DNA of 64,000 nt, taken from positions 1,116,001-1,180,000 of the forward strand of contig ML996688.1 in assembly GCA_010356995.1 (NCBI GenBank), read 5' to 3'. Position numbers and translations under genes: made by a program. The notes beneath the pieces are model-generated. The model was not told the origin of the DNA and searched no databases. It was given only the letters and a program-made list of their open reading frames with translations. Shown here one piece after another: positions 1,824-35,837 of this stretch. This stretch comes from Trichodelitschia bisporula (Eukaryota). Positions within the stretch are counted from its first letter, which is position 1; every line of letters starts with the position of its first letter.

Positions 1824-3029
1824 CTACAGCTTAGCCTGCACCGGCCCCACCTGACTCTTCGCCTCTTCAATCAACCCCAGCGTAATGGCGGCGACGGGAT
1901 CCCGCTCCTGTCCGACCTGGTATGCAATCGGGCTGCTGGCCTGCCGCGAGGCGTAGCGCGCTGCAATGCCCTGGAAGATGATGACGTTTCGGTACATGGC
2001 GAAGGCCGTTCCCCAAGGGATGTCCGGCCGCGGGTCCCATCCTGCGAGGCTGGCGTACAGGTCGATGCACTCGGCACGCGTCGGCAGCCCGGCGAGCAGC
2101 TTTGACGGCGTGAACTCGATGCGCGAGTTGCGGCGCTGCTCGCGCGTGCGCGCCGTGATGGTGTACGGCTCGAGGAGGCAGCAGAGATCGGAGAGAGGAT
2201 GACCGATGGTGGACATTTCCCAACTGCAAAAGTTAGAAGGTATTTCGTCGCTTTCTTTGCTCGACTCACTCCAGGATGCCAATCACCCGCGGCTCCGTCT
2301 TGTGGTAGACGAGGTTGTCAATCTTGAAGTCACCGTGGATCAACGTTCCCCGGTCTTTCGGCTGAGTCTTCGTCTCCTTGAAGTACTCATTGAAGAACTC
2401 GGTATGCGGCACGAGACCGACAGCCTCACCCGTCTCAATGTCCTTGACCACCGCCTGGCTCTTGTTCAGCGTATCGAAGGTCGCGATCTGGCGGTTGTAG
2501 AAGCCAGTAGGCTTGCCAAACTTCTGCAGGCCGACGGCAGCCACGTCAACGGAGTGCAGTTTCGCGAGTGTCCGAACGGCATCCTTCCACATCTCGTTGC
2601 GCTCCTCGGGGCTAACATCGGGCATGTGCGGCTCCTCAATGATACGTCCGTCCAGGAACTCCATGATGTAGAACGCCGAGCCGATGACATTGTCGTCGGT
2701 GCAGAGGCCGTACGTCTTGGGCACCGGGACGTTGGTTTTCTCCAGTGCGTGCAGTACGCGGTACTCGCGGTCGACCTTGTGCGCCGACTTGTTGATCAGT
2801 GTGCCTGGGGGCTTCTTGCGGAGGACATATTTCTGCTTGTCGGCGGAGATCAGCTGGTATGTGGGGTTCGACTGCCCGAAGCCAAACTGTGCCTGTTAGC
2901 TGGCTATCTTTTTACTACGGCATAACTTACCTGCTTCACCGTCAACGGTGTCTTGATCTCCGGGACATTGGTGTTGAGATATCTCTCCAGTGACGGGATG
3001 TCGATCGGTTGCCTCACGGGACCGGCCAT
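1824..3029 (-). CDS. APH-family phosphotransferase, ACAD10/11 N-terminal kinase type (LvaA-like), peroxisomal
   Basis: Three exons: [10 protein letters not shown]...[12 protein letters not shown]...RKKPPG...HGDFKIDN, and [15 protein letters not shown]. Ends in PTS1 tripeptide -AKL. Confidence 0.9.
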
Positions 3030-3578
3030 TGTCAAGATGTAAGAATGATTTGATCGAGAGTTACAACTTGCAGTCTTCCTTTCTCCCAAATCCCCATGAT
3101 ATGCACCCTCTAGCCTAGTGTCCAACCTCCCATTCCCGCTCCCTCGCGGTCCGAGGATGAATTCGCCTACGCGCGGCCTGGACGCTTGGCCGAGCGCGAA
3201 GCGGGCGCGGTCCCCGGAATGCGCTATCGTGCCCGGGAGCCGGGTGTGCTTAACCGGCTCAGCCTCCCCGAAATAAGTGAATGCGGGTCCGCGCACCCAG
3301 AACTGGGCATGCTCATCCACATCGACTACTTTGCCACTAGGATAACAGCGGTCATTGAGCGCCGTGGACTAAGCGTGATGGCGCTAATGCCCCGCTGTGG
3401 GGTCGCTGCGAACTTCGGTTACCCCGCGACATGGGGTTGCTGAGAAAGGCTTGTGGAGACGGTTTCGCGGGTTCACGCGGGGAAGGGGTAGGGAGCGGGG
3501 AGCATTTGAGTGAACGCGTTTCCGGGTGCTGAGCTGATTTTTGGGTTAAGTTTTTTTGTTTGCTTTGGATTTGGAGCA

Positions 3579-4812
3579 ATGGTTGGTAAACACGCGCTTG
3601 TCTTTGGCGCCAGTGGCATCTCTGGCTGGGCCATCACGAAGGAGATCCTGCAAGGCTATCCCTCCCCCGATGTCTTCTCCAAGGTCACGGCGCTCACGAA
3701 CCGTCCGCTGAGCAAAGAGGCCAGTCTCTGGCCGGACAGCGAGAAGCTCCAGCTCGTCAGCGGGGTGGATCTGCTCACGGAGAAGGGACTGGAGGGTCTG
3801 GAAGCGGAGCTCAAGGAGCGGGTTAAGGATGTCGAGACCGTGACACACGTCTACTTCTTCGGTGCGCAGGCAATATCCCCTTCATGAGCCTCCGCTAACC
3901 GCCCGCAAAGCGTACGTCATGGACGAAGACCCTAAGAAAGAAATCGCCATCAACATCACCCTCCTCGAGCGCGCCGTCCGCTCCATCGAGCACCTCTCCC
4001 CTAAACTCGAATTCGTCGTCCTCCCCACTGGCACCAAACTCTACGGCGTACACCTCATCCGCGACTTCCCATTCAGCAACCAGCTTCCCCTCCGCGAAAC
4101 ACTCCCCGACATCCCGGAGCCCCACGCCAGCCAGATGTTTTACTACGACCAGCTGCGGGAGCTCAAGAACCTGAGCGAGGGGAAGAAGTGGACTTGGTGC
4201 GAGGTTGTGCCGGATATGATTGTGGGTTTCGTCCCGAATAACAACATCTACTGCCTTGCGCAGGCGCTGGCGCTGTACCTGTCCTTGTACCGCAAGCTTA
4301 ACGGCGAGGGCGCCGAGGTCCCGTTCCCCGGGACCGAGGATTCGTGGAGGATCTTGAGCAATGATTCGGGGCAGGACATCATCGCCCGGTTCAGCATCTT
4401 CGCCTCCTTGCACCCGGACAAATGCGGCAACGGCCGCCGGTTCAACGTCGCCGACAGCAACACCCCCAAGTCCTGGGCGGTGAAGTGGCCCGTCATCTGC
4501 GCGTTCTTCGGACTGAAGGGCGTGGCTCCGCCTCCGGGTGGGAGCGGCCCGCAGCCTATTCAGTATGTTGCTGATCACTTCGCCGAGTGGCAGAAGCTAG
4601 AGAAGGAATATGGGTTGAAGACCGGGCGGGCGGGGAATGGTCGCAGTTATAATGGGTTTCCGTACTTTATTATGACGATGTTTGATTTTGATAGGCATAT
4701 GAGCTTGAATGCTATGCATGAGGCGTGGGGGGGGGAGAGGGAGGAGACGGATGTTAAGGGGACGTGGTGGACGGCGTTTGAGAGGTTTAGGGAGGCGAAG
4801 ATTATTCCATAG
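3579..4812 (+). CDS. PRISE-family atypical SDR (progesterone 5-beta-reductase/iridoid synthase-like, SirQ-like) enone reductase, copy 1
   Basis: ALVFGASGISGW, TGTKLYG, FYYDQ, PDMIVGFVP motifs; one intron near 3862-3910. Confidence 0.85.
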
Positions 4813-5261: not shown

Positions 5262-6678
5262 CTAAAAGTCTGTCGCACCATACTTGACATACTCAACCCC
5301 CCACTTCTTGCACAACTCCTGGTGCCTCTTCTGATACGCCAGATGCCGCTCCTTAAACCCCCCCGCCGTCTTCATCTGATCCCGCCCAACCTGATGCCTA
5401 TGCGCCGAATCCGGCCCATCCGCCACCCTCACAAACCGCGCATAAGTCCACATCTCCGGCAGCGCCGTATGCTGCGTCAACCCCTGCCCGCCATACATCT
5501 GCATACACTCATCGATAACCTTCGTCGCCACATTCGGCACCAAAATCTTGCACTGCGCAATCACATACCGCCCCGCCTTGCCGCCCAGGATATCAATGGT
5601 GTCCGCGGCGTTCAGGACGAGTTGCCGCATGCTGTCGATCTCCATGCGCATGCTCGCGATCCGCTCGATGTTGCTGTCGAACTCGCCGATTAGCTTGCCG
5701 CGAGGCTTCTTTTGCGGCTCGATGCAGCGGATCAGCGCGAGCTCGTACGCCCGCTCCATTTGCCCGACCAGCCGCATGCAGTGGTGGATACGGCCCGGCC
5801 CGAGCCTGCCCTGCGCGATCTCAAACGCTCGCCCGGGCCCGAGGATGATGTTCTCGATAGGCACGCGCACGTTGTCGTACACATACTCGCCATGTCCCTC
5901 CGGCGCATGGTCATACCCCATAATCGTGATATTGCGCACCATCGTCAGGCCCTTCGCGCGCGACGGGACTACGACCGTGGTATGCCGCTTCCAAGGGTCG
6001 GGGTTGGTGGGATCGGAGCACCCCATCAAGATGTAGATGCCGAGATCGGGGTTGGCTTGCGAGTTACCGTAGAGTTTGCGGCCGTTGATGATGACTTCGG
6101 AGCCTTCGATGCGCATGCTCAGGCCGATGTTCGTGGCGTCGGAGGAGGCGACGTCCGGCTCGGTCATGCTGTAGGCGGAGGACATGGTACCGTCCATGAG
6201 GGGTTTGAGCCAGCGCTCCTTCTGCTCGGGGGTGCAGTATTTGGCGAGGAGCTCAATGTTGCCGGTTTCGGGGGCGTGGCAGTTCATCGTCTGCGGGGAT
6301 TAGCCTACGCTTCTGGGTTCAATTGAAAGGGTGAGAACGCACCTGCGCAGCCCAATAACACCGCCCCATAATCTCAGCACAGCACGCATACTCGAGATTC
6401 GTAAGCCCAGGGCTCTCCTTGAAGTGGTTCGGCAGGAAGAGATTGAACAGGCCCTGGGCCTTCGCTTTCTTGCGCAGCTCCTCGATCAGCGGCGGGGTCG
6501 TCCAGTGCTTGCCTGCGACTGCGAGCTGGGCCTTGACGACGGGCTCTGCGGGGACGCATTCTGTCTCGACCCAGTCGTGCACTTTTTGGATGGTTTCGAT
6601 GGCGTTGGGGCGGAGCTTTGCCTTGACCCAGGGAGGGATGCGGTTGAAGGCGGGGTTGTTGTCCATTGAGACGGTCAT
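5262..6678 (-). CDS. Acyl-CoA dehydrogenase, ACAD10/11 C-terminal type (LvaC-like)
   Basis: GLTNLEYA, NCHAPETGN, MTEPDVASSDATN, AQGRLGPGRIHHCMR, RVADGPD (Asp at the position of the usual catalytic Glu, as in ACAD10/11); one intron near 6291-6342. Confidence 0.92.
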
Positions 6679-7210
6679 TGTGGCGGCTCGTCAGGTAGAA
6701 TGTGAGATGGAGAGATGGCGTGAGAGTGATGATGAATTGCAAGACTGCGTGAGGATGTTTTATGAAGCTCTCTCCATCGCGCATCTCAACACAGCCTGTA
6801 GTCGGCTACGAGCCGCAAACCAGGGACGCGCCGAGGCGTGGCTGGCACCATGGTGGCCGAGGGCATGAGGTTGGACGTGGGTGAACATCTCCGTTCCGAC
6901 TTCCGAGAATACCGCCGACGTGAAGATCAGGCCTGTGGTTGGCTGTGCGATCGCTGGGCCCCGGACTCCACATTTTGACGAGCCGCTAGCCCTGTTTGAA
7001 CTGCTGATCAGGGTGCGAGGCTGGAACTGCGGAGACACACCCTGGCTCCGAGTTATACTACGTATGTGGAGACTTTATGCCGGCTACGCAGCTGGTGGGA
7101 TATTAATGAGGCTGAAGCTCCCCGCAGAGGCGGGGTAGTTTGTCACTCTTGCCTGAGACTGATCCCGCATCCAACGATATCCCCTCCTTAATCACATCCT
7201 CAGTATCAAA

Positions 7211-8321
7211 ATGGCAGATGAAGGCTTCGCCGCGCCCTGGGTGGCCGTACGTCCCCCACCCAGCTCTCTCTCCCCAACTAACCCCTTCAGTTCGAGAAAG
7301 AACTCGGCCAACGCCCCCTCCTCAAAGGCGGCCTCGAAGCGGTCTTCAAAGCCTGGGCCGCCCTCGGCGGCGCCCTCGTCTCAAAGTACACCTTCCCGGC
7401 CCCCGACCCCTCCGTCAACACAAAGGACCAAACCCTTCCGAACTCCAGCCTCAAAATCCGCATCTACACGCCCAAGGGCTACGACTCCAGCAATCCGAAG
7501 CCGGTAGGTCTGTACATCCACGGCGGCGGCTGGGCAATGGGCGACCTCGACGCCGACGACGCGACGTGCCGCGCCATCGCCGCCGGGGCTGGCGTCGTGC
7601 TCGTGTCCGTGGACTACCGGCTTGCACCGCAGAACCCGTACCCGGCGGGATTGGACGATTGTGCAGCGGCATTTCGGTGGATGCTGGAGAATGCGCGCGC
7701 CCTCGGCGGGGTAGAGGGGAAGGTGTGGACAGTGGGCGCCAGTGCCGGGGGAGGGTCGGCGCTTGGACTTGCGCTGAAGCTGGTGGATGAGGGGTTGGGA
7801 GACAAGGTAGCGGGGATTGTGAGCCAGGTGCCTGTTACGGTGCATCCGGATGCTGTGCCCGAGAGGTTGAGGGGCGAGTATACGAGTTATGAGGAGCATA
7901 AGGAGCACACGGTTAATTCGAAGGAGGCGATGTATACGTTTTGGAGTAAGTGGTTTCGTTGGGGCTTTGCGGGATGCGTGCTGACGGTTTAGATGCGTAT
8001 GGCGCGCCGCCGACGGATAAGTATGCGAGTCCGTTGCTGCATCCGAAGCTCGCGGAGCTGCCGAAGACGTACATCACTTGTGCGGGGCATGATACACTGC
8101 GGGATGATGCGAGGCTTATGAGGGCCGAACTGGAGGCCAAAGGGTGAGTTGGTTGAGACTGCGAAGAGACAGTGTTTAACAAGCATAGGGTTCCGGTCAA
8201 GTACGATGAGTTCCCCGGCTATCCGCATTACTTCTGGACGTTCCCGTCTGCGCAGTTGAAGGAGCCGGCGTCGGAGTACATTCGGAAGCTGGTGGCGGGC
8301 GTTGCGTTTGTCCTTTCGTAG
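7211..8321 (+). CDS. HSL-family alpha/beta hydrolase (esterase/lactonase)
   Basis: HGGGW oxyanion motif, DYRLAP, GASAGG nucleophile elbow, GHDTLRDD, GYPH; three introns; TAG at 8319-8321. Confidence 0.88.
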
Positions 8322-8960: not shown

Positions 8961-10064
8961 ATGAAGGCCGGCCAATTCGACTTCGTACGTCTTCCAAACC
9001 CTGATGTCCCAATCCTAACAACCCCCAGGCGACCAAAAAAGCCGTCGTCAACGATGTGCCCATCCCAGAGCCGGGCCCCAACCAGGTCCTAATCAAAGTC
9101 AAATCCGCATCGCTCTGCCATAGCGACCTGATGCCGGACTTCCGCCCGGAGGGCCCGCCGCGAACAATGGGCCACGAAGGCGTCGGCGTGATCACGAAAC
9201 TCCACCCCTCCGTCGAGGGCCGCGACTTCAAAGTCGGCGACCACGTCGGCGCCGGCTACTTCGTCGACGCGTGCTTCAAGTGTGATGGGTGCTTGACGCA
9301 CAACATGCTGTGCCAGACGAAAACGCCACGGCTGCAGGGTTTCATCGCCGATGGGTTCTTCGCTGAGTATGCGATTGTGGAGTATGAGAACTTGGCGGTG
9401 CTGCCGAAGGAGGTGGATCTTAGCCGGTATGCGCCGGTTTTCTGCGCTGGTATTACGGGTAGGTGGGCTTGGGGTTGGGGGGATTTCGGCTGACGGTGTA
9501 GCTTTCCATGCTGTTGATTCTTGCGAGCTGAAGCCGGGCGAGTGGCTCGCTGTTATCGGGTGCGGTGGCCTCGGACAGCTGGCGACGCAGTATGCTAAGG
9601 CGATGGGGCTGAAGGTCGTGGGTATTGATGTCAATGACACGACGCTCGAGGTCACGAAGGCACAAGGCGCAGACGCGATTTTTAACTCTCGTTCGAACCC
9701 GAACTACGTCGCTGAGCTGAAGAAGCTTACAGATGGGGGCGCGCACGCGGCGGCTGTGTTCAGCGATGCGGATGCGGCGTATGCGCATGCGCCGGAGGTG
9801 TTGCGTCTCCGAGGCTTGCTGATGGTGGTTGGCTTGCCGAAGAATCCGCTGAAGATTACAGCGGTGGATTTGTGCATTGGGAAGTATAGAATTAAGGGCG
9901 AGAGCACGAGCATTCCGCAGAGGATGAAGAAAGCGGTTGATTTCACAGTTAAGCATGGCATTTTGCCAGAAGTGGAGTTCAGAAAGCTTGAGGAGTTGCA
10001 GGATATGATTGATGAGATGACGGAGGGCAAGGCGACCAAGCGTATGGCGGTGGTGTTTGACTGA
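8961..10064 (+). CDS. Zn-dependent medium-chain alcohol dehydrogenase
   Basis: LCHSD, GHEGVG, structural-Zn CxxCxxC...C, FCAGIT, GCGGLG; two short introns. Confidence 0.92.
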
Positions 10065-10505: not shown

Positions 10506-11171
10506 ATGACCCACGCAAAGATCGATCACAAATTCAGCTACGATGAGCTCGCCTACGACACTCCGAAGAACTACCAGCGTACGTCCATCGCTGTATTCTC
10601 ACGCCTCTAACACTCCCAGCCTGTGTCAAGCTTTCCTTCTTCTTCAACAAGTTACCCAATGTCTCGTACGAGCACTTCCATCGCCACTGGGAGACGGTGC
10701 ATGCGGACCTTGCCATCTCGGCTAGAGAGTTTGGGCTGTGCGGTCTGAAGCGCTATTCTCAAGTACAACTTCCCCCCAGTTAGCAGGATGTGCGATTCTG
10801 ACCTAGTACAGCACCACCAAACGCCCGACTTCAAGGAAAAGGTCACGGCGTTAGGCATGGATCTGATGGACTACGACGGCTGCTCGGAGATCTGGGTTCG
10901 GAGCATGGACGACTGGGAGCGCTTTTTCAAGGTGCGCCTCATAGCGCGCCACCGCATTTCGGGCCTTTTCTTCGCTTCACACTGCTGACGACCCCACTAG
11001 AGCCCCGAGTACAACGCCGCTATGTCGAAGGATTGTGCGAACTTCATGGGCATGCCTATCCGTGTTATGGCGGGGAGGGAGCATCTGGTGTTCGGGAAGG
11101 CGATTCCCGGCTTGGATGGGACGGATGGAATAACGGTGCATAAGGCGACACATGGCCAGAAGGAGGGGTAG
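10506..11171 (+). CDS. EthD-domain (dimeric alpha-beta barrel) protein
   Basis: Spliced reading MTHAKIDHKF...FFFNKLPNVSYEHFHRHWETVHADL...DYDGCSEIWVRSMDDWERFFK|SPEY...DCANFM fits the EthD pattern; about three introns, with approximate boundaries. Confidence 0.72.
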
Positions 11172-11835
11172 AAGGCCTAGAGCTGGCGGTCGAAATTCTT
11201 GGATGGCGATGCAGCTCGAGATTCGAGCCATATGGTTCCTGGGAGAAGCAGGGATGGAGGATTGTGGCAGTTAGCCGAGTACGTTGAAGTGGAAGTCACT
11301 CTGGACTCAGCCAATGCTTAGACAACCGCGCTACTTCCTCGCCGTGCTCATGACTTACCCCGGAATCAAGATGACAGTAGCGCGTTACCCCACTCCTCAC
11401 TCAGTGCCAAAACTCTATCGTCCACCATCGGGCCCGTTAACCTTTACCCTCACCGCACCGTCACCTTAGGCTGTATGTACCAAGCCTGGCTTGCATTCAG
11501 TATGCACAAGGCTGAAATTCCAATTGGCCGGTCCCTCACAACGCTTAGGACACGGTTGGAAAACAACAACCGACCCAACCTCCTCAGGCCGCACGCGACA
11601 CGCTAATGTCCCGTCTCCACGGCCACCGGCCTTACCCCAGACTACGCTTCGAGCGCCACCTCCGACCCCATGGGGAACGCAGAAGGCTAGCCTGCGTGTT
11701 CGGCGAGGCGATCGGTGTAAAAAAGTTGAAATATCAGGCCTTCCCAGTCGGTGAAAGAACTGTTGCCGCCTCCTCTTGCTTGTGAGGACTCGTTGCTGCT
11801 CAATTCACAACCCATACGTCCGCAGATACTCAATT

Positions 11836-13802
11836 ATGGCGGCCGGTTCAACGGACTCAGTGTCCATCCACGGCCGCGACCCCGAGAAGCTACAAGCGGA
11901 GAAGATCGAGGACCCGCATGTTGTCGAAGTGCAGCGCCCGGAAGAAAATGAGAGAGTCACGGCAAAGACATGGCTCGTCATCTTTGTACGCTGGGCCCCT
12001 ATCGTGACAAGCTTGAACTGACTCTCAGGTTCTCTCCTCAACCTTCGGTCTCTCTTTCTGGCCTGTCCCCACGACAGGCGCCATGCAAACCGGTCTAGGG
12101 GCTCGCTGGGGGGACATCACATCAACTTACTGGTACAGTATGTACGTCCCTCCTTGCAGCGTTAAGATACTGATGAGCTAGTTCCGGCCTACACGACGGC
12201 TAACGCGCTCGGCTTCCTGCTCGCTGGTGCGAACAGTGACATATTTGGTCGCCGGCTATTCCTGTATGTCTCAGTCCACAGGGGAGATTTAGCTGACATC
12301 CCAGCCTCGCCGGCAACGTCATCTGCTGCCTTGGGTTTATCCTCAGCGCAACCGCAAAGGAGCCAATGCAATTGTACGTCCCCTACTCAACCACCACCTC
12401 CACAGCTAACCGGACAGTACCGCTGGTCTTGCCGTTACCGGCTTTGGGGGCGGCGCCTGTCAAATGGCCATGTGCTCGATCCCCGAGTTGATGCCGAACA
12501 AGTACCGACACATTGGAATCTGCATAAGCGACGGCTTCGTCTTCGTCATCGTGGTCATCGGGCCCGTCGTCGGGCGCTACGCCATCGACACCACTGACGG
12601 CTGGAAGTACATCTACTGGGGCGGCTTTGTCGCACAATTCTGCAGCTTGGTCGCCCTGGCCTTGCTCTACTATCCCCCGCGGCACCCGAAGGGCGTGCCC
12701 TGGAAGGAGGGACTGCGCGGCCTGGACTACGTGGGCTCTGTGCTTGTTGTGCCGGGCATTTGCGCAGCGCTCGTCGGCATCATCAACACGACATACAAGA
12801 GCAGCACGGATCCGAGCGTCATCGCACCAATTGTCGTTGGCTTTGCACTGCTGATTGCGTTCGGCTTCTGGGAGAACTTCGGCGGTGTCAAGTACCCGCT
12901 CTGCGAGCCGGCTATCTTCCGCAGCAACTACGGGCGGGAATTTACGGTGCCGTTCGTTATCGCTTTTATCGTCACCATGTTCTACTACGCCATCAACATC
13001 ATCTACCCGACCATGATCAACGTCTTCTACGTCACTCCAACAACCTCCCGAAGCGAGACGTTGCTCCTGACTCTCCCCGGTAACCTGGGTCTTGTGTTCG
13101 GTGCCATGCTCCTCATCTGCTTCGGCAACCTGATCGGCCATTGGAAAATTACCCTGGTCGTCTCATGGGCGGGCATGTGCTTCTGGGGCGGGATGATGGC
13201 CCTCGTCACTCCTACTAACAAGGGCATGATGATCGCATTCACTTTCCTCGAGCAGACCTTCTTCGGCTGGGCGCAGTACGAATCCGTCGCTTTCACCCAG
13301 CTGGGCGTCAAGCAAGTTGACCTTGGTATGAGCGGCGGTCTTGCGGGCGTGGCTCGCTATGCCGGCGGGAGTCTGGCACAGGCCATTTATGTCAGTATCA
13401 TGACGAATGTGCAGACCAAGAAGGCCGCGGAGCTGCTGCCCAAAGCCGCTATTGCTGCGGGTATCACACCTGCCAACGCGCAGAAGCTGCTTGCCGCCTT
13501 CCCTCTGGGAGCAACGGCCATTGGTGCCGTCGACGGCGCGAATGACACGGTGTTGGCTGCCGCGACCGAGGCGTGGAAGTGGAGCTATGCGCATGCGTTG
13601 AAGGTCACTGCGCTGTCGTCGCTGAGTTTTGGCGGCATTGGACTGATTCTCTGCTGCTTGTGCGAGAACATTGATCACAAGATGAATGAAAATATTGAGG
13701 TGTTCCTTGAGTAAGTACCTCGTTGCGTGGATGGCGGAGCTTTTGCTGACTTAATGCAGGAACGATATTAATGCGGATAAGAACGCTGCGGCGACGCATT
13801 GA
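11836..13802 (+). CDS. MFS transporter, TRI12-like (fungal trichothecene efflux pump family)
   Basis: Many hydrophobic segments; SDIFGRR, GWKYIYW, YYPPRHPKG, LDYVG motifs; several short 5' exons and one 3' intron. Confidence 0.88.
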
Positions 13803-21119: not shown

Positions 21120-22902
21120 TCACAGCCTCGCCTTCATCTTACCCTCCAAAACCGGCGCATCCCTCTTCGCCCACTCCTTCAACAACTTCCTTACAATCTT
21201 CCCACTCGCCAACTTCGGCACCTCATCCACAAACGCCACGCCACCGACGAGCTGCTTATGCTTCGCCACCTTCACCTTCATAAACTTATGAATATCCGCC
21301 TCGCCAACCTTCCCCTTCCACTCCTCCTTGAGCACCACATACCCCCGCGGCCACTCCTCTCCATGCAGCGTGACGCCCACACACGCCGCATCCGCCACGG
21401 CCTCGTGCTCCAACAACGCTGCTTCGAGCTCGGCCGGTGCAACCTGCAGCGCGTTGACCTTGATGAGCTCCTTCTTCCGGTCTACGATCCAGAACCACCC
21501 CTCTTTGTTCACGATCGCAATGTCGCCGGTCTTCAGCCATCCGTCCGCGCTTAGCGACTCCTTCGTCGCTTCCTCGTTGCGCCAGTACCCGAGACACACG
21601 TTCGGGCCCCGCACGTAGATCTCGCCCGGCTCGCCCTGCGCCACCTCTTTGCCGTCTTCGTCGAGCAGCTTGCATTCCATCCCGGGGTCCAGGAGACCCA
21701 CGCTGCCGGTGCTGGCGGGGTTAGCATGTCAACATAATAGCAGGAGGGAGGGGAGACATACTCGTCATCCGCACTAAACGGCACATGCATCGCCCCACAC
21801 GTAACCTCCGTCATCCCCCACCCCTGCGTAACCCTAATCCCAAACCTGCGCGTAATATCATTCTGCAGTTCCCTACTCAACGGCGCCGCCCCACACAGTA
21901 TATGCTTCACAGAGCTAATATCCCACTCCTTCGTCTCGGGCCTCTTACTCAGCATCACCAGAATCGGCGGCGCGGTATGCAGATGCGTAATCCGGTACGT
22001 CTGTATCACGCGCAGGAACTCTGCGAACTGGAATTGCCGCATGACGTACAGCGGCAAATTCAGTTTCGTAGCCATGATCACGTACCAGAGTTGCCCGTAC
22101 GCGTGGTACAGTGGGAGGAACCCGACCCAGCGCTCGTCCGGCCGTGTGGCCGGTGTGAAGCCCGTGCCGTGGTACTTGATTACCATGTGCTGCTCGGCGT
22201 TGGCGACGAGGTTGTAGTGGCTCACGCAGACCCCCTTTGGCAGCCCGGTAGTCCCGGACGAGTAGTTCACGGTTGCGATAGTACTTTCGGCTTCCTGGGG
22301 GGTCATGGCGGGGATGACGTGCAAGTCTGCGTCGGCGGGAGAGGCGAGCATGGACCGCCAGTCGGGGATGCCCTGAGAAGGCGCGTTGGGCCTATCGCTG
22401 AATTGGAAGATGCGGCTGTGTGGCAGGCCGGAGGCGGTTGCGGCGGCGAGGGCGGTGGTGAGCAGGTCGGGGTGCACGAGGAGGGTGCGCGCGCCGGTGT
22501 TTTTGATTTGGTGGGTAAGTTCTAGGGCAGAAAGTCAGCCTTGCGCTTGCATTCCTCATCTCCAAACTGCAGGAGGGAGCATGTACCAGAAGCCGTATAA
22601 ATCGGATTCGCAGCACTAAAAATGCGACGGCTCCCCACAATCCCCAAATACGCCGCCGGAACGAAAATATGATTCGGCGTCAGAATCATAACCACCTCCT
22701 GCGCTGCGACGCCGAGCCTATCCAGCCCGAGCGCCAGCCGCTTGACCCACTGCAGCATCTGCCGCGGACTCAGGGAATTGTCTGGGTTCGCGGCTTCGAG
22801 CCAGATGGGCGTTTCGGAGGGCGTGCTGCCGCTGGGGAAGAGGTAGGAGAGGACATCGGTTTTGGGGATGGGGGGGGCGGGGAGGGGGGATGTTAGGACC
22901 AT
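21120..22902 (-). CDS. 4-coumarate-CoA-ligase-like acyl-CoA synthetase, peroxisomal
   Basis: YSSGTTGLPKG, LPLYHAYG, QGWGMTE, GWLKTGD, DRKKELIK, VPKLASGKI; ends in PTS1 -ARL; two introns. Confidence 0.93.
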
Positions 22903-23440: not shown

Positions 23441-24438
23441 ATGTCTGATCTGGGAAACTTTGGCGGGTTGTTCCGCCTCGATGGCAAGGTTGCGGTTATC
23501 ACGGGCGGTATGTGCATTCAAGAGTATACGCGAGCAGTGGCTAATGGAGCAGGATCCCGCGGTCTCGGCCTGCACACCGCAACCGCGTTCCTCCTCGCTG
23601 GCGCATCCAAAGTCATAATCACAGCGCGCAAACTCGAAGGCGCGGAGGGAATCAACCAAGCCGTCTCCAAACTCAATGCACTCCCGGTGCAGGGACGCGC
23701 CATCGGCATCGCAGCCAACGTCGCCGACACCGCGGATATCGAGCGGCTCGTCAAAGAGATCGGCAAAACGGAGAGCAAGGTGGATATCGTGGTTGCGAAC
23801 GCGGGGGCTACGTACGGCGGCCCGTTCGACACGACGCCAGATGAATTTAATAAGAAGATTTTGGATTTGAATGTTAGGGGGGTGTTTAACCTCGTGCGGC
23901 TGTACGTCTCCCTCTCCATCCCCAATTCCTCACTGATCGATACTCCAGCCTCCTCCCGCTCCTCGAAGCAGCCGCCACGCCCACCGACCCCTCCCGGGTC
24001 ATAATCGTCTCCTCGACCGCAGGAATCAACGTCCCACACGTAGGCCAACACGGCACAATCATGTACTCCGTGTCCAAAGCCGCCGCGCACCACCTCAGCC
24101 GGAACCTAGCAATGGAGTTGGGGCCTAGGAATATCACCGTCAACACCGTGGCCCCCGGTTTCTTTCCTTCGAAGCTGGCGAAGGGATTGATTGATATCCT
24201 GGGCGGGGATGAGCAGTTGCGGGATGATAATCCGCGGAAGAGACTCGGGGAGCCAAGTGATATTGCGGGGGTTATGGTGTATTTGGCGAGTCCGGCGGGG
24301 GCGTATGTGTAAGTTGAATTCCTCCTTACCTTCGGATCGTAAGAGCGGGTGGGACTGACTGATGGGCTTAGCAATGGAGAGGACATCTCAGTTGACGGCG
24401 GGATGCGGCTGGTAACAGGGCGGCACTCGAAGATTTAG
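23441..24438 (+). CDS. Classical SDR (3-oxoacyl reductase/RhlG-like), probably peroxisomal
   Basis: TGGSRGLG after removing intron 23508-23552; ANAG, YSVSK, VAPGFFPSK; last exon NGEDISVDGGMRLVTGRHSKI ends in PTS1-like -SKI. Confidence 0.88.
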
Positions 24439-25308: not shown

Positions 25309-27107
25309 ATGGGAGGCATCGCCGAACTCGCGCTCCCCGCCGCGGGCCTCGGCCTCGCTGCCGTGGTGCTGTATTTCGTCGGCCTCGCGGTTTACCGTCT
25401 GACATTTCACCCACTCGCGAAGTACCCGGGCCCGTGGCTTAATGCCATCTCGCCGATCCCGGGCATCATAAGCCTGCTCCGCGGGCGGCTCCCGCTGGAA
25501 ACGAAGCTCATGCACGACAAGTACGGCCCCGTGGTGCGGGTGTCGCCCATGGAGCTCAGCTTCAATGGCGCGCAGGCGTGGGAAGACATCTATGGACATC
25601 GCCAGGGGCTGAAGAATATGCACAAGGGTGAGTTTGGCGTTTGAGGGATAGGGATGGGGCTGATGGGCAGATCCGATTCATGTCGGCTCCGTGGATCCGA
25701 TTCCCGGTGTTACAACGCTCACGATGGCCGATGATGCGAACCATGCCCGGCAGCGGAGGGCGCTGGCGTACTCGTTCAGCCAGAAGGCATTGCTTGAGCA
25801 GGAATATATCGTGCAGGGCTTTGTCGATACCTTGATTGAAAAGCTGAGCCTGCGTGCCGACGCGGGTACGCCGATTAATATGGTTGACTGGCTGTGAGTT
25901 GCTACCTCCACATAAAGTGACAAAGCTGACGGGACAGTAACTTCACCACCTTCGACATCATCGGCGACCTGGCATTTGGCGAGCCCTTCGGCTGTCTGAA
26001 GGATGGTAAGTGTCCATTCCAAGGCTGAAGGGCATAACTGACCTACGAGAAATGTTCCACGACTGGGTATCCCTTATCTTCGATACCATCAAGATTGGTG
26101 CCATTGAGCAAGCGTACATTCTCCCCATTCTCCCTCCTTGACCCATCACTAACACGGGCAGCACACGGCGCTTCGCTACCGCCGGCCAACCCTTCCAAAA
26201 CTTCCTCGTCAGTATGATTCCCGCTGCCTGGCGCCAGCGGCGCCGGCTTCATCTGGTCAAGTCGCAAGAAAAGGTCCTCCGCCGTCTTGCGAACGAAAAG
26301 ACCGAACACCGCGACTTCATCTGGTACATTCTCCAGCAGCGTGAAAAGCACGACCTGAAGCAAGACGAAATCATCGTCAACGGCGCCTTGTTCATCGTCG
26401 CCGGCTCCGAAACCACGGCCAACCTGCTCTCCGGCCTCATCGCCCGGCTAGTCTGGAACCCGGACAAGCTCGCCAAACTTGTAGCCGAGCTGCGCAGCAC
26501 GTTCAAGTCCGACAAGGAAATCACCTCCGAAGCCGTGAAGCAGCTCCCCTACTTCCAAGCCTGCATCGAGGAGGGCCTGCGCATTCACCCGCCCGTGCCG
26601 GCCGGTCTGCTGCGTACAGTCCCCTCGGGCGGCGCATTTATTGACGGGAACTGGGTCGTAGAAGGGACGTCCGTGGCAGTCACCGGTTGGGCCGCGAGCC
26701 ACAACCCGGCTAGCTTTCGTGATCCCGACGCGTTTATTCCTGAGCGCTGGCTGGACGAGGCGTATGCGAGTGATAACAAGAAGGGCATGCAGCCGTTTTC
26801 GCTCGGCCCGCGTGGGTGCATTGGGCGGCAGTGAGTACTCCCGTGGGAGGTGTGTGAGAACTGGGGCTAATGAGACCAGTTTGAGTTACATGGAGATGCG
26901 TGTCATCCTCGCGCGTCTGCTGTGGAATTTTGATATTGAGAGCACGGACGGCGCGTGGCGCTGGAATCCCGAAGGCGAGATGAAGCATATGCGTGCGTTT
27001 AATACGTGGGAGAAGCCGGATTTGAACCTGAGACTGTGAGTAACCTCCGGCTTTTGGGAGAATGTTTTACTAACGGTTACAGCACCCGCGTTAAGCGTGA
27101 GGTTTGA
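25309..27107 (+). CDS. Cytochrome P450 (TRI11/averantin hydroxylase-like by overall pattern)
   Basis: N-terminal membrane anchor, [37 protein letters not shown]; about six introns. Confidence 0.93.
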
Positions 27108-27483
27108 GCGTCATTCGGAAGGCGACGAGACGAAGGCTAGACAGTTGCGAGTGAACAAGATGCGGCGCCAACGACATGATGAAGAGTTCGGACTGCGAAC
27201 AAAAATCGGGCTTGGATGAGGAGAGGATCCGGTAGTGGATAGCTGTGCCTATGAGATGAAGAACGCCTTGTCAGACTACAACTGATGATCACGGTTGAGC
27301 AGACAATACAAGCCTTCCACTTTGACATAGCGGCTTCTTTTTGCATCCTATGATTTCCTCGCTTCAAGTGGTTCGACAGTATACCAAGTGACGTCAAGCA
27401 TTCCAGGAACGAAGGAACGATTCATCGCCCTGACTTGCAACTGCCCGTCGATCTGATCGCACCTACCTATTACAGTACTCTGA

Positions 27484-27704
27484 TTGCACCTTCTTCTCGC
27501 TCCCATTGTACCTTCTTCTCGTTTCCATCGCGCTTACCTCTCGCTCCCATTGTACCTTCTTCTCGTTTCCATCGCACTTACCTCTCACTCCCATTGCACC
27601 TTCCTCTTGTTTCCATCGCACCTACCTCTCACTCCCATTGCGCCTGCCTCCGGCCCCCAATTGCACCTTCTTTTCTCTCCCATTCCGCCTGCCTCCTGCT
27701 CCCA
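27484..27704. repeat. 22-bp pyrimidine-rich minisatellite, about 10 units, with alternating A/B (44-bp) structure
   Basis: Units such as TTGTACCTTCTTCTCGTTTCCA alternate with TCGCACTTACCTCTCACTCCCA. Confidence 0.9.
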
Positions 27705-28692: not shown

Positions 28693-30647
28693 ATGGGCGA
28701 CGCAACCTCCGCCGCCGCCGTTGAGACCGCGCCCCCGGCGCCTGCTGTCGAGAACTTCGCTTACCCCGAGGCGACGCCAGAGGGGCCCTACCGCGTTCTC
28801 CCGCAGTATCACAGCAAGCCGCGCAAGCTGCGCATCGCATGTGCCGGCGCGGGTGCCAGTGGTCTATGCCTGGCATACAAGCTGGAGAAGATGCTCGTGC
28901 CGGGGTCGTGGGAGCTGACGCTGTTTGAGAAGAACCCACAGTTCGGCGGGACGTGGTACGAGAACACCTACCCGGGTGTTGCGTGTGATATCCCCGCGCA
29001 TGACTATACATTCACTTGGGAGCCGAAATGGGATTGGAGTCATTTCTTTGCGCCTGGAGATGAGATTCAGCGGTACTTTGAGGACTTCGCGGAGAGGCAT
29101 GGTAAGTTTGCCCGGTTTTTCTGGCTTTCCCTCGGCAAGGCTGACGTGTTGCACAGGCAGCCATAAGTACATCAAGCTCAACAGCAAAGTGGTTGAGACG
29201 CGGTGGAACGAAGAAGAAGGCATCTGGAACATCACACTGGAGAACCAGAAAGACAAGGGCCTGTCCAAGGACTGGGCGCATGTCTTCGTCAACGGCACGG
29301 GCATTCTGAACAACTGGGCTTGGCCCGAGATCGAGGGTCTGCACGACTTCAAGGGCCCGCTCATGCACTCTGCCAAGTGGGACCATACCGTCGACTTTAC
29401 GGGCAAAACGGTGGGTGTCATTGGCACCGGGTCCACGAGTGTCCAGATCGTGCCCCAGCTGCAGAAGGTTGTCGAGAAGCTTGAGGTGTACATGCGCTCT
29501 CCCACATGGATCAGCCCGCCCTTCGGCGCGGGCGCGCTGGACGATGTGCACAAGGGTACGTTTCCCCTCCCCATTCCCAACAAAACTAACTCCCCAAGGC
29601 GAGGAAGTCAACCCGGGCCAGCGGCAATACAAGTTCAGCGAAGCGGAGAAGGAGAAGTTCCGCGACGACCCGGAGCACCACCTCATGTTCCGCAAGAAGA
29701 TCGAGGCCGAGATCAACGGCCTGTTCGGCATGTACTTCCAGGGTAGCGACCTGTCCAAGCAGTTCCGCGAGACGATCACGAACGAAATGCACCGCCGCAT
29801 GGGACCTGGGAATGAGAAGCTCAAGAGCTTTATCATCCCCAAGTGGAGCCCCGGGTGCCGCCGCATCTCACCCGGCGATGGGTACCTTGAGGCGCTGGTG
29901 CAGCCGAATGTCGAACCTGTGTACGGCGGGATTCTCAAGATCACGCCGGAGGGCATTGTTACTGCTGACGGCAAGGAACACAAGCTCGACATCATCGTCT
30001 GCGCGACCGGCTTCAAGGTCGCCTTCCAGCCGGCCTTCAAGGTGGTCAACGGGCTCGGCAAGTCGATCCAGGAGGACTGGGTCAACGGGCCGAATCTGTA
30101 CTTTGGCGTCTCGGCGCCGCGCTTCCCCAACTTCTACACCATTGTCGGCCCGGGTGCGACGTGGAGCAACGGCACGCTGCTGCCGTCCATTGAGACGACG
30201 ATTGAGTACTCGGTCAAGATGATCAAGAAGATCCAGAGCGAGCATATCAAGGCGATTGAGGTGTCGCAGGAGGCGCTGGACGAGATCTACGCGCACTTTG
30301 ACGAGTTCCACAAGGGCACTGTGTGGCAGGAGGAGTGCCGGTCGTGGTTCAAGGACGGCAAGATCAAGAACCGGATCTACCTGTGGCCGGGCGCGGTGAG
30401 TACTTTCCAACCTTTGCAACCCTTGCAAAACGAATCAGCAGAGACGAGAAGCTAACGATCTGGCTAGACCATTCACTTCCTCAAGTCGATCAAGGACCCC
30501 CGTTTCGAGGACTACAACATCCGCTACCGGTACAAGAACCGCTTTGCCTATCTTGGCAACGGCGAGGTCAAGGCACACACAACGGGCGATGTCCAGGGAC
30601 TCAGCCCGTACATTCGCAACTCGGACACCGAATGGAGTGTTGAGTAG
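28693..30647 (+). CDS. Type I Baeyer-Villiger monooxygenase (MoxY/StcW-like)
   Basis: GAGASG, GGTWYENTYPGVACD, BVMO fingerprint FKGPLMHSAKWD, GTGSTS, ATGF; three introns. Confidence 0.92.
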
Positions 30648-33035: not shown

Positions 33036-35837
33036 ATGGCCCCCTCCGCCGCAGACACCACCCAGCCGGACGCCAGCATCGTCCCCTCGACGGAGAAAGA
33101 ACATTCAGACCAAAATTCTTCCAGCTCCAAACGTCAGAAATCCCGCCATAGGGCCTCCGTCGCCTGTGCCAGCTGCCGCGACCGGCGCATTCGCGTAAGC
33201 CCCTCATCCCCCCGTCCTCTTCCCAAACCACCAAACTAACACAGCACAGTGCGTCGTCCCCCCCGGCGAAACAGAATGCACGCAATGCAAGCGCTCAGGC
33301 ATAGAATGCATCATCAAAAACGACGACGAGCGGCGGCGGTGCGTCTTCCCCTTTCCCCCATGAACCCCATTTCCCACCCCCCAAACCCTCTCCCGGACCC
33401 GAGCTGAGCCTGCCTAGCCCCATCTCCCGCGCCTACATGTGCTCCCTGACCGACCGCGTCGCCCTCCTAGAATCCATGCTCCGCGAAGCCGGCTCCGAAC
33501 CGCCCCCCGCCAACCACCCCCCTATGACGCGGCACGGGCCGCCTAGAATCGACGACCCCTCCCCAGCACGCAAAGTTAAAAACCCGCACAACGCGCCTGC
33601 GAGCAATCCTTCCGGCGCGAGCCACTCCAGCCCTGGGAGCCAGCATGATGATTTCATGGATGCGGAGGGCGAGGGCGGGCAGGATGGGGGGAGTGTGCAC
33701 AGCGCCCCAAGCCCGCCTATGCTCCCGCCGCCAAGGAGGGATGGGATGGTGAGCAGACTGTTGAGTACGAGGGGGCATTTGAGTTTTGATCAGTTGAGTG
33801 GACGGCTGAGGTATTTTGGGCCGACGACGAATTGCCATATCCATACTACGCTCGGTGGTCCACCGGAGGAGAGTTCCGAAGGGCTGGAGCAAGTTCGGCG
33901 CGCGGAGAAGACGATCCGGTACCTGAGCGGGGAGACGCACGAGTACCTCATGGAGCTGTTTTGGACGTATTATAACAGTGTCCTGCATGTGTTGCACAAG
34001 GATGCGTTTTATGAGGATAGGGAGCAGGGGCGGACGCAGTTTTATTCTCCTTTCTTGCATATTTGTGTTCTGGCGATGGGGTACAGGTTTGCGGATAAGA
34101 CGAGGCCGGATATGCAGCGCATATCGATGCCGGGACGGGAGAGTACGTTGCATCGCGAGGCGAAGTACATGATGGATTTTGAGCTCGAGAGGCCGGGGGG
34201 TATTCCGTCTGTCGTTGCGCTGCTGCTGCTTGGCGATTTGGAATGCGGTGTTGGACGGGACAATCTGGGGTGGTTATACGCTGGCATCGCTGTTCGGTGA
34301 GCCCCCCCTTCCTCCCCTTAATCCCCTCAAACCTAACGGAATCAGCATCGCCTTCGACATCGGCCTCCACCTCGACACACAAAACACCGGTCTCCCAGAC
34401 CGCGAAGTCGAAATCCGCCGCATGACGCTGTGGGCCTGCGTCATCTACGACAAGTACTGGGCGCTCTTCCTCGGCCGCCCCACGAGCATGAAGTCCTCCG
34501 ACCTAGAAGTCTACCACCTGAGCAAGCAATTCGAGCGGCTGGGGACGTGTCGCCCCGCGGGGCCTGAAAAAGCCCTCGAGACGCAGATCTACGAGGCTTT
34601 ACTCGATTTGATGGAGCTGGCGGGGAAAATAACCGAGAACATGGATCCGCGCTCCCAGGCCGATGCCACGATCGACCGCGACGCGTATCTGCGCATGGCG
34701 GCCCTAGACCGCGAGTTTGGGAACTGGTACGCGCGCTTACCAGAACCCCTCCGCTGGACGCCGCACAACATCAACACCGCCCCATTCTCCTTCTTCCTCC
34801 TCCACCAACAATACCACGCCGCGCTCATCCTCCTCCACCGCCCCTTCGCCATGTACGAAGACACCTCGGACTCGCACGAAGAGTCCAATTCCCCGGATAA
34901 CCATTTCAGCGCGCTGAGCCGCACGGTCTGCACCAAGCACGCCATCCGCGTCGCGCGCATCTTCTGGCAGCACAGGCAGCGCTTCGATACACGCCGCATC
35001 TTCGTCACCGGGCTGCAACACGCTGGCACCGCGGCCACCGCCCTGGTGGCCGCGCTCGCCTTCCTCAAAGACGCGACCGATAGATCCAACAACATGCAGT
35101 ATTTGGAGTGCTTGACCGCGGCGCTCCAGGACATGGCGTACACGTACCAGCCCGCCGAGCGCATGTTCCTGGTCCTACAAGCCGTCGTCTCCGAATTGCG
35201 GGGCACCACCGATCCCGGCGGCTTCAGGCCTCGCGCCGTGGTCCCGGCCCGGCGCGGCAGTAACACGGTCGACGAGCCCGAAGCCCCAGGACTGGCGAAA
35301 CGGCGCCACGTGGCGCGCGCACGAGGGCAGAGTAAAAGCCACATCGGGGGCGGGGACATGGCCATCGACCCTGCGCTTGGGGGACTGAAGCCGTTGGACG
35401 AGGGGGACGGGTTCGTTATGATTACGCCGCGGAGCGATTTGAGTGGGTGGCCGGGGGATGTCATGTTAGGTGATACCCTTGGGACGCCGGGGGGGTTGAG
35501 CGGGCTGGCGGCGGCGGCGAGGGGGGGGAATGCGTGGATGGGGGCGGAGATGGAGAGTCATGATATTGGGCATTTGGCTAGTGTGCATTTTCCCGAGTTG
35601 AGGGATATACCCGGCGTGGGCGAGGGGGAGAACGGAGGGGGTGGGGGAGGGGCGCCTGGCGGGGCTAATTTGGATTTCATGGCCATTGGGGAGGAGTGGA
35701 AGGAGTGGAATGGAAGTGCGGTGCAGCCGGGGAGTGAGATGGAGGGTTTCGCGAGTGGTGCGAATGGGTTTGGTGGGTTTGGAGGCGGGCAGGAGGGATT
35801 TGGGGAGGGAAAGATGGGGTTTGCGGAGACGGTTTAG
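33036..35837 (+). CDS. Zn(II)2Cys6 transcription factor with fungal-specific TF domain; candidate cluster regulator
   Basis: CASCRDRRIR|CVVPPGETECTQCKRSGIEC binuclear cluster split by an intron; middle region FDIGLHLD...RRMTLWACVIYDKYWALFLGRP; acidic Gly-rich C-terminus. Confidence 0.92.

Follow-up and report, generated by a model that had tools for sequence, protein, structure and literature searches.

The 64,000 nucleotides analysed here (hereafter the window) belong to contig ML996688.1 of Trichodelitschia bisporula, a dothideomycete according to a lineage lookup, and our analysis concerns a block of metabolic genes lying between position 1824, the stop of an APH-family kinase gene, and position 35837, the stop of a Zn2Cys6 transcription factor gene. 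An earlier note on this DNA had read the block as a catabolic cluster devoid of a backbone enzyme, an interpretation that we find partly supported. At a probability of about 60%, we consider the block to be a conserved modular catabolic cluster of filamentous ascomycetes, which would convert a ketone-type compound into acyl-CoA for peroxisomal beta-oxidation.

Because the window bears introns and has a high GC content (53-62% per 2 kb), every stop-to-stop open reading frame (ORF) was scanned against Pfam, the minimum length being 70 aa within 1-38.5 kb and 80 aa in the remainder of the 64 kb. Gene models combine the ORF frames with introns of the GT..AG type and with RNA contigs, the latter covering positions 16000-35999 only. 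The two contig sets used for this purpose were taken as RNA since they are spliced: 15 GT..AG joints (CT..AC for minus-strand genes) were seen in them and not in the DNA run, which confirmed splicing for six genes, namely those encoding the aldehyde dehydrogenase (ALDH), the two short-chain dehydrogenases/reductases (SDR1 and SDR2), the cytochrome P450, the Baeyer-Villiger monooxygenase (BVMO) and the transcription factor. Both sets come from one sample and cannot rank expression. For PRISE2 (393 aa) and the acyl-CoA dehydrogenase-fold (ACAD) protein (454 aa), the model is equal in length to the deposited T. bisporula protein and the query exons matched it at 100%. The gene models are real genes, and the block holds exactly 16 of them, in the following order:

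1824..3029, minus strand: APH-family kinase, 371 aa; exons 1824-2223, 2270-2886 and 2931-3029; Pfam APH, 5e-36; C-terminus -AKL
3579..4812, plus strand: PRISE1, putative NAD(P)H 1,4-enone reductase, 394 aa; exons 3579-3861 and 3911-4812; Pfam PRISE, 1.5e-126
5262..6678, minus strand: ACAD-fold protein of ACAD11/LvaC type, putative 4-phosphoacyl-CoA phosphate eliminase, 454 aa; exons 5262-6290 and 6343-6678
7211..8321, plus strand: Abhydrolase_3 protein of the hormone-sensitive lipase (HSL)/GDXG type, putative esterase or lactone hydrolase, 324 aa, 4 exons; Pfam Abhydrolase_3, 1e-34
8961..10064, plus strand: Zn-dependent alcohol dehydrogenase (ADH), 338 aa, 3 exons (short first exon predicted); ADH_N, 7e-21; ADH_zinc_N, 7e-22
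10506..10988, plus strand: EthD-domain protein, about 130 aa, 3 exons, 3' end uncertain; EthD on two exon ORFs (2e-4 and 1.4e-5)
about 11826..13714, plus strand: major facilitator superfamily (MFS) transporter of TRI12 type; rough model, 5' exons uncertain, last exon 12410/12608-13714; TRI12, 1.2e-28 over 417 residues
14409..15638, minus strand: PRISE2, 393 aa; exons 14409-15313 and 15362-15638; Pfam PRISE, 1e-120
16235..16966, plus strand: single-exon ORF of 243 aa, no Pfam match, divergent from PRISE2
17504..19084, minus strand: ALDH, 490 aa, 3 exons; Aldedh on three exon ORFs; both introns confirmed by RNA
19632..20543, plus strand: SDR1, classical short-chain dehydrogenase, 288 aa; adh_short, 5e-28; intron 19666-19710 in RNA contigs
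21120..22902, minus strand: acyl-CoA ligase (4-coumarate-CoA ligase/luciferase-type AMP-binding), 555 aa, 3 exons; Pfam AMP-binding and AMP-binding_C; C-terminus -ARL
23441..24438, plus strand: SDR2, ketoacyl-reductase-type SDR, 280 aa; Pfam adh_short and adh_short_C2; C-terminus -SKI
25309..27039, plus strand: cytochrome P450, 500 aa, 6 exons; p450, 1.2e-44; N-terminal membrane anchor and haem motif present
28693..30647, plus strand: type I BVMO, 594 aa, 4 exons; NAD_binding_8 and FMO-like; three introns in RNA contigs
33036..35837, plus strand: Zn2Cys6/Fungal_trans transcription factor, 872 aa, 4 exons; Cys6 motif; three introns in RNA contigs

Thirteen of the 16 fall into enzyme families, and the remaining three are the MFS transporter, the Zn2Cys6 factor and an unknown protein resembling EthD. 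No housekeeping gene was detected within the block, the closest clearly housekeeping gene being a Cwc2-like Torus/RRM gene at 45283-46587. Likewise, no Pfam family of polyketide synthases, nonribosomal peptide synthetases (NRPS), terpene synthases or dimethylallyltryptophan synthases was found in any scanned ORF across the 64 kb, and neither a ketosynthase nor an NRPS condensation domain gave a single match anywhere in it; the sole AMP-binding protein is the stand-alone 555-aa ligase. The scans and the gene models thus bear out what the earlier note had seen at this locus, that is, 16 adjacent genes with neither a housekeeping gene nor a backbone enzyme among them, and the 16-gene observation is confirmed.

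The kinase/ACAD pair, its partners and the remaining genes

Among structures of the PDB, the APH kinase matches 3dxp (8e-45) and the kinase domain of mouse ACAD11 (7e-37). Its HGDFKIDN stretch aligns to HGDFKLDN of ACAD11 and keeps the catalytic Asp (mouse D220), a position marked by the D-to-A mutant chain 8v3u. The ACAD protein matches 4hr3 (7e-83) and ACAD11 (3e-73 and 3e-72), while the best classical acyl-CoA dehydrogenase, the medium-chain enzyme, reaches merely 5e-23. The available text of PMC12440821 names R626, H634, R637 and D753 as the pocket residues of the mouse enzyme. The window protein keeps R, H, R and D equivalent to these residues of the 4-phosphoacyl-CoA pocket: its stretches QGRLGPGRIHHCMR and RVADGPD align with them, the Asp being marked by the D753N mutant chain 8v3v (by our own count, the numbering of the mouse ACAD11 PDB chain is that of the paper minus 1). 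In the alignment to mouse ACAD11, all five key residues, the kinase Asp and the four of the ACAD pocket, are therefore conserved.

According to the accessible passages of PMC12440821 and PMC11342911, the kinase of an ACAD10/11-type pair phosphorylates 4-hydroxyacyl-CoA, and the ACAD domain eliminates the phosphate from the resulting 4-phosphoacyl-CoA to give 2-enoyl-CoA; separate halves are active too, as in bacterial LvaA/LvaC and in cleaved ACAD10. The former paper, as far as its text is available, proposes that ACAD10/11 serve hydroxy acids shortened into 4-hydroxy acids. In the window the kinase and the ACAD are not fused but are encoded by separate genes, with PRISE1 sitting in between. 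On the residues above, we predict that the two proteins are the halves of a split ACAD10/11- or LvaA/LvaC-type 4-hydroxyacyl-CoA kinase and phosphate eliminase; every sequence feature checked for membership of the ACAD10/11-Lva group is present in them, except the fusion of the halves. This split module, which went unrecognised in the earlier note, is the most specific mechanistic clue at the locus. The word "fungi" occurs 0 times in the available part of PMC12440821, and "fung" 0 times in that of PMC11342911.

In order to see which genes accompany the ACAD elsewhere, metagenome contigs were scanned with an ACAD exon, which returned 53 fungal loci (each designated by L and a number), and their neighbours were identified by local tblastn with the window models at an identity of at least 45%. 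Two window genes that recur with the ACAD in these loci (L006, L013, L014 and L036) encode the acyl-CoA ligase, whose model shows its family motif and whose match in the PDB is 4-coumarate-CoA ligase (3e-27), and SDR2, which matches RhlG (1e-10) and has three introns spliced in the RNA contigs, the last one in a single contig set. They are divergently transcribed, and the pair is conserved in the related loci. As judged from Pfam and PDB families, the ligase and SDR2 match LvaE and LvaD, respectively, at family level only, and together with the kinase and the ACAD they would form an Lva-like module.

Proteins imported through the type 1 peroxisomal targeting signal (PTS1) end in a C-terminal tripeptide of the [SAC][KRH][LMI] type. 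Such PTS1-like ends are carried in the window by the kinase (-AKL), the ligase (-ARL) and SDR2 (-SKI). In the related loci they are kept in 3/3 kinase orthologs (-ARL, -AKL and -SKL), 4/4 ligase orthologs (-ARL in three, -AKL in one) and 6/6 SDR2 orthologs (-AKL, -TKL twice, -AKM twice and -SKM), and they also occur in 3 of 10 hydrolase orthologs (-ARL twice and -TKL). None was found on PRISE, ADH, ALDH or BVMO, either in the window or in the recovered orthologs, nor on SDR1 in the window. These ends back the earlier proposal that the compound is activated with CoA and degraded in the peroxisome, and the picture they suggest is that of an early, cytosolic or endoplasmic reticulum-associated part followed by a peroxisomal CoA part. 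ACAD orthologs ending in -SKL, -AKL or -PKL were seen in L006, L013, L014, L018, L020, L039 and L043 (7 of 34); where the ACAD has no signal, one may speculate that its import depends on the PTS1-bearing kinase (piggy-back).

With regard to the enzymes that could act before CoA activation, the residues regarded as catalytic in the PRISE family are the Lys of TGxKxY and the Tyr of FYY. Both paralogs have a full-length PRISE domain and keep this Lys; the PRISE1 model shows TGTKLY and FYY, and its best PDB matches are 3-oxo-delta4,5-steroid 5beta-reductase (1e-11) and iridoid synthase. PRISE2 likewise matches 5beta-reductases (4e-15), and its exon 2 is 100% identical to the deposited 393-aa T. 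bisporula protein. The two paralogs are merely 41% identical to each other, and both types recur in related clusters. Type I BVMOs are recognised by the fingerprints FxGxxxHxxxW[P/D] and [A/G]GxWxxxx[F/Y]P[G/M]xxxD, plus two Rossmann motifs, and the window BVMO model carries both fingerprint motifs, GGTWYENTYPGVACD and FKGPLMHSAKWD; its PDB matches are cyclohexanone monooxygenase, phenylacetone monooxygenase and steroid monooxygenase (1e-22 to 1e-13). The hydrolase, divergent from the ACAD, matches family IV esterases (down to 8e-29) and has HGGG and GASAG motifs. The PRISE proteins, the BVMO and the hydrolase of the earlier note thus carry motifs of their families, PRISE2 with FYH in place of FYY. 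The note's statement that the substrate is taken up was not supported: the MFS gene falls in the TRI12 family, named for an efflux pump, and the direction of transport is not readable from sequence.

As for the remaining genes, three introns of the P450 gene are seen in RNA contigs and the others are predicted. The 243-aa ORF has no Pfam match up to E=5. Among ESM Atlas clusters, the one closest to it has a score of 0.92 and 36% of its members carry EthD, a single-sequence AlphaFold2 model reached a predicted local distance difference test score of 36.6, and a 44% identical copy lies in L007, divergent from the PRISE2 ortholog there; that the protein is an EthD/DUF4286-like alpha+beta barrel is a lead only. 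An Atlas search with an exon of the transcription factor gene returned only generic Fungal_trans clusters. The leader of this gene is unusually long, as RNA contigs start at 31939 and 32235, 0.8-1.1 kb 5' of the ATG; no recognisable gene was found at 30648-31900, 3' of the BVMO gene. Between the 243-aa ORF and the 3' end of the ALDH gene, the segment 17103-17235 has a DNA contig depth of about 29,758 versus about 415 nearby and is present in RNA contigs too. We take it as a high-copy dispersed repeat because many contigs break there with differing flanks.

Beyond the block, some 9 kb (36000-45000) show a strong T-over-A skew (AT skew of -0.21 to -0.22 at 36-40 kb), and the long ORFs at 39953-41185 (plus strand) and 42412-43635 (minus strand) have no Pfam match even at E=5. 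Farther along lie a full-size ABC transporter gene (about 49058-52973, plus strand; two ABC_membrane and two ABC_tran regions), an ORF of 578 aa of no named family (53196-54929, minus strand) and, side by side at 56134-60172, a metallo-beta-lactamase-fold gene, a second ALDH gene and a third SDR gene, which may constitute another small metabolic group.

Conservation of the neighbourhood and of its promoters

Among the matches listed, BVMO homologs are 70-83% identical to the window protein in Dothideomycetes, Eurotiomycetes, Sordariomycetes and Leotiomycetes, and ACAD homologs are 66-82% identical across fungal classes. NCBI locus tags of the orthologs stand 2-12 apart in species of three classes, as follows (the class was looked up for Polytolypa, Saxophila and Pycnora):

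Polytolypa hystricis (eurotiomycete): BVMO 01931, PRISE 01938, ACAD 01941
Vermiconidia calcicola: 010020 and 010026
Saxophila tyrrhenica (dothideomycete): 005751 and 005757
Paraphaeosphaeria minitans: 002078 and 002080
Coniosporium apollinis: 06610 and 06604
Recurvomyces mirabilis: 002565 and 002571
Myotisia sp.: 003681 and 003687
Pycnora praestabilis (candelariomycete): 004668 and 004671

By our own reading of the homolog tables, the BVMO and PRISE homologs have the same longest-contig size in 17 organisms, and not in at least 4. A deposited 802-aa protein of Halenospora varia (P0075) joins BVMO and AMP-binding domains; most likely it is a merged model of adjacent BVMO and ligase genes, and it would then be a further sign that the two genes are neighbours in a leotiomycete.

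The 53 metagenomic loci extend this observation. In the 23 loci of at least 9 kb, further cluster families were found as follows: at least one in 21, at least three in 8 and at least five in 5. Two loci are collinear with the window, L023 over PRISE2, MFS, EthD, ADH, hydrolase, ACAD and kinase, and L030 over ALDH, PRISE2, MFS, EthD, ADH, hydrolase and ACAD. Four others show a shuffled order: L013 and L014 contain ADH, hydrolase, ACAD, BVMO, ligase, SDR2, P450 and PRISE, while L036 and L045 contain the transcription factor, BVMO, PRISE, ACAD, ADH and ALDH, L045 repeating the arrangement of the window in which the BVMO is followed by the transcription factor. Co-localisation is conserved across several fungal classes, but gene order is shuffled. 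The earlier note had named a lack of conserved co-localisation as an outcome that would speak against its reading; the neighbours are, on the contrary, conserved in several fungal classes. That these families turn up again next to the ACAD ortholog of other fungi shows that the clustering goes beyond chance. A fortuitous run of unrelated metabolic genes, which could be imagined given that each of these families is common in fungal genomes, is scarcely credible, for these orthologs are met together again in many species and in metagenomic contigs, and both the divergent hydrolase/ACAD pair (26 of the 53 loci) and the ligase/SDR2 pair are conserved.

The same loci bear on the question of whether the genes serve a single substrate. 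It could be that two separable modules merely lie side by side, a peroxisomal one (ligase, SDR2, kinase, ACAD and perhaps the hydrolase) for 4-hydroxy and 4-oxo acids and gamma-lactones of whatever origin, and a cytosolic one (P450, SDR1, PRISE, BVMO, ADH and ALDH) for ketones or xenobiotics. Some loci of about 20 kb indeed show only ACAD and SDR2 (L012 and L032), ACAD, SDR2 and ligase (L006) or ACAD and hydrolase (L009 and L025), the remaining genes change their order from species to species, and the promoter box described below marks above all the promoters of the CoA module. However, BVMO, PRISE, ADH and P450 orthologs lie directly beside ACAD, ligase and SDR2 in the differently ordered L013, L014, L036, L045 and L010, and the orthologs stand within 2-12 locus tags of each other in the species named above. 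As selection for joint function would be expected to keep genes associated through rearrangements, we hold two independent modules to be rather unlikely and favour the single catabolic cluster.

A biosynthetic role was considered as well, in which the enzymes would tailor a secondary metabolite whose synthase lies elsewhere. Fungal biosynthetic clusters commonly contain P450s, BVMOs, SDRs, EthD-like proteins, TRI12-type MFS transporters and Zn2Cys6 factors, and some BVMO homologs are named 'stcW-like' in the database. Yet in addition to the 64 kb being free of a backbone gene, no backbone enzyme was found in the scanned, otherwise unexplained flanks of six related loci (L007, L014, L023, L036, L039 and L045); the cluster contains an ACAD11-type catabolic pair and peroxisomal targeting; its promoters carry boxes of fatty-acid regulators; and the identities given above for the BVMO and ACAD homologs across classes are, in our judgement, unusually high for tailoring enzymes. 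We therefore regard tailoring as highly improbable and retain the catabolic reading.

Inspection of the promoters revealed CCTCGG, which the available text of PMC5068947 gives as the binding site of the Far/CTF1 fatty-acid regulators, at the following positions:

6831..6862, no strand assigned: two CCTCGG (Far/CTF1-type) boxes, divergent ACAD/hydrolase promoter
3151: single CCTCGG box, between the APH kinase and PRISE1 genes
23276: single CCTCGG box, between the ligase and SDR2 genes
28452: single CCTCGG box, upstream of the BVMO gene

The motif is not enriched window-wide (43 matches versus 52 expected). It is present in 14 of 19 non-redundant related hydrolase/ACAD intergenic regions, at 1.87 per kb versus 0.48 per kb in the rest of the loci, and in 4/4 ligase/SDR2 intergenic regions, the window's own counted; of 20 non-redundant hydrolase/ACAD intergenic regions, 13 contain the 7-mer CCTCGGC, compared with a maximum of 7 in mononucleotide shuffles. 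The earlier note had proposed the cluster's own Zn2Cys6 factor as the regulator; this conserved box suggests that the genes are at least partly under general fatty-acid regulators. CGG/CCG dyads showed no clear enrichment (at most 1.9-fold). A second motif, GYGGGGTA, has 14 sites in the window versus 3.2 expected, a count that 0 of 100 shuffles reach; 11 of the sites fall in cluster promoter regions, and by position 12 lie within 3420-31429, the other two being at 40310 and 45305. As a conserved element it was rejected, having been picked post hoc and being present in just 1 of 26 related hydrolase/ACAD intergenic regions, and it is either species-specific or a post-hoc artefact.

In nine of the 53 loci (L003, L004, L005, L007, L013, L014, L016, L039 and L042) an AtuA ('acyclic terpene utilisation') gene adjoins the hydrolase/ACAD pair; these genes match PF07287 (up to 1e-164) and have the AtuA ferredoxin-like domain, and we count them in favour of the catabolic reading. 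Both the AtuA gene and the Far boxes bear on a further alternative, namely that the genes detoxify products of lipid peroxidation and oxylipins, endogenous or from a host (4-hydroxy- and 4-oxo-2-alkenals and vinyl ketones), through PRISE and ALDH and then through ligase, kinase and ACAD into beta-oxidation. The enzymes for such a route are all present, Far boxes fit lipid metabolism, and 4-hydroxy acids are the substrates shown for ACAD10/11 in the accessible part of PMC12440821. Nevertheless, this explanation would leave BVMO, hydrolase and P450 without a role, although BVMO and hydrolase are among the most constant neighbours, and would not account for the AtuA gene of the related clusters; we judge it improbable in comparison with the breakdown of a ketone-type compound.

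Proposed pathway, known counterparts and significance

Taking as given the families of the proteins, their targeting signals, the residues of ACAD11 type and the conservation of the neighbourhood, we infer the rest of the pathway by following the logic of carveol breakdown in Rhodococcus erythropolis DCL14, which was adopted because it is the simplest scheme giving every enzyme a role. Most likely, the substrate would be an alcohol, enone or ketone that is terpenoid-like and either cyclic or branched, cyclic and terpenoid ketones being weighted more heavily than acyclic ketones from sub-terminal oxidation. In this scheme, (i) the P450 would hydroxylate the compound and SDR1 would oxidise the alcohol to an enone or ketone, (ii) the two PRISE paralogs would reduce the conjugated C=C bond (1,4-reduction), (iii) the type I BVMO would insert oxygen beside the carbonyl to give a lactone or ester, which the HSL-type hydrolase would open to a hydroxy acid, (iv) Zn-ADH and ALDH would oxidise primary alcohol and aldehyde ends, (v) the peroxisomal ligase would make the CoA ester, on which peroxisomal SDR2 could interconvert oxo- and hydroxy-acyl-CoA in the role of LvaD, and (vi) once chain shortening has left a C4 hydroxyl, the peroxisomal APH kinase would phosphorylate it and the ACAD11/LvaC-type protein would eliminate the phosphate to yield 2-enoyl-CoA. 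The last step would have a place in such a route, as ring opening of a substituted cyclic ketone would leave a secondary hydroxyl, which would block beta-oxidation once on C4 and could be removed by the kinase/ACAD pair. The TRI12-type MFS transporter, the two EthD-like proteins and the Zn2Cys6 factor would be accessory.

By analogy, the cluster would combine a ring-opening pathway of the bacterial BVMO type with an Lva/ACAD11 module. As regards the latter, the known counterparts are mammalian ACAD10/ACAD11 and the Pseudomonas putida lva operon (LvaA-E). The kinase and the ACAD-fold protein match both ACAD11 domains, with catalytic and phosphate-pocket residues kept; the cluster also encodes an acyl-CoA ligase (putative role of LvaE) and a ketoreductase-type SDR (putative role of LvaD), at family level; and a peroxisomal setting is common to ACAD11 and the cluster, where it is predicted from the PTS1-like ends. 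Mammalian ACAD11 is fused, whereas in the window the halves are separate, as in bacteria, and split by a PRISE gene. Unlike ACAD10/11 and lva, moreover, the module is here part of 16 clustered genes that include BVMO, hydrolase, P450 and PRISE, and its ACAD half is without a PTS1.

With respect to ring opening, the chn cyclohexanol pathway of Acinetobacter follows the same BVMO enzyme logic, and the window hydrolase would share the GDXG/HSL family with MlhB, a monoterpene lactone hydrolase. The bacterial BVMO routes were likened to the window by enzyme type, and they differ from it in that the window is eukaryotic, with a split between cytosol and peroxisome, PRISE-type reductases and an added 4-hydroxyacyl-CoA kinase/eliminase. 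The carveol route of R. erythropolis DCL14, as described in the available text of PMC4097962, comprises a hydroxylase, a dehydrogenase, carvone reductase, a BVMO, an epsilon-lactone hydrolase, a CoA ester and beta-oxidation; as far as that source goes, its limonene/carveol pathway runs through the same series of enzyme types as the window, further dehydrogenases included.

A fungal counterpart is the terpene-induced cluster of Grosmannia clavigera, which likewise is backbone-less, is linked to monoterpene use and has BVMOs reported to be peroxisomal (PMC8120277, in the part available). This cluster comprises about 30 genes, including the BVMOs CMQ_6956 and CMQ_7007 and the acyl-CoA ligase CMQ_6959, whose expression rises 1107-fold on monoterpenes (PMC4368105, Table 3). 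CMQ_6956 and CMQ_6959 are three tags apart, which equals the BVMO-to-ligase spacing in the window. Ophiostoma piceae has homologs of just 5 of the 30 G. clavigera cluster genes, according to the accessible text of PMC3680317; its homologs of the window BVMO and ACAD are 72% and 73% identical, respectively, and G. clavigera was not among the best 120 matches in either the BVMO or the ACAD search. As O. piceae thus has BVMO and ACAD homologs while G. clavigera stays outside the best 120, the cluster described here is, on this indirect evidence, probably not the G. clavigera terpene cluster. Pseudomonas offers another point of comparison in its Atu pathway, which also passes through an alcohol, an aldehyde, an acid, a CoA ester and an ACAD-family step. 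Although an AtuA-family gene stands beside hydrolase/ACAD in the nine fungal loci mentioned above, there is none in the window, and, unlike in the Atu pathway, the geranyl-CoA carboxylase family is without a match in the Pfam scans of the window.

Several points weigh against a single pathway as outlined. (i) In two of the 23 long loci the threshold of 45% identity is reached by no other cluster family, and in several by one only, so that, cluster content being variable, the 16 genes may not be one pathway; in Verruconis gallopava, furthermore, the BVMO and ACAD tags are 69 apart. (ii) The window ACAD ends in -TDF, without a PTS1, and just 7 of 34 orthologs have one. (iii) In PRISE2, FYH stands in place of the FYY of PRISE1 and the plant enzymes, a His replacing one motif Tyr. 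(iv) The TRI12 family, to which the MFS gene belongs, is more typical of toxin export. (v) The AtuA family of the related loci is absent from the window. (vi) The order of steps comes from family names only. (vii) The RNA contigs, coming from one sample, cannot show co-regulation, and the GYGGGGTA element was lost as a conserved signal.

The full texts of papers searched, supplements aside, yielded no account of this cluster in fungi. Cluster finders in common use overlook catabolic clusters that have no backbone enzyme, and not many of those from fungi are understood. The carriers of the present one include rock-inhabiting black fungi, plant pathogens and dung fungi, and since it is conserved over several ascomycete classes, it probably reflects a common ecological substrate. 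With this cluster, the recently discovered 4-hydroxyacyl-CoA kinase/eliminase chemistry of mouse ACAD10/11 and of the levulinate operon of bacteria would find its place in a fungal pathway that is predicted to be peroxisomal. The BVMO conserved at 70-83% across classes, the two PRISE enone reductases and the HSL-type putative lactone hydrolase are of biocatalytic interest. A bolder proposal, which we put forward only tentatively, is that several ascomycete classes share an undescribed pathway mineralising plant or volatile cyclic terpenoid ketones, in which cytosolic PRISE and BVMO steps are coupled to a peroxisomal, split kinase/eliminase of the ACAD11/Lva type. If this is true, the catabolism of monoterpenoids by fungi would gain a genetic basis, and the 4-hydroxy-acid pathway its first physiological context beyond animals and bacteria.

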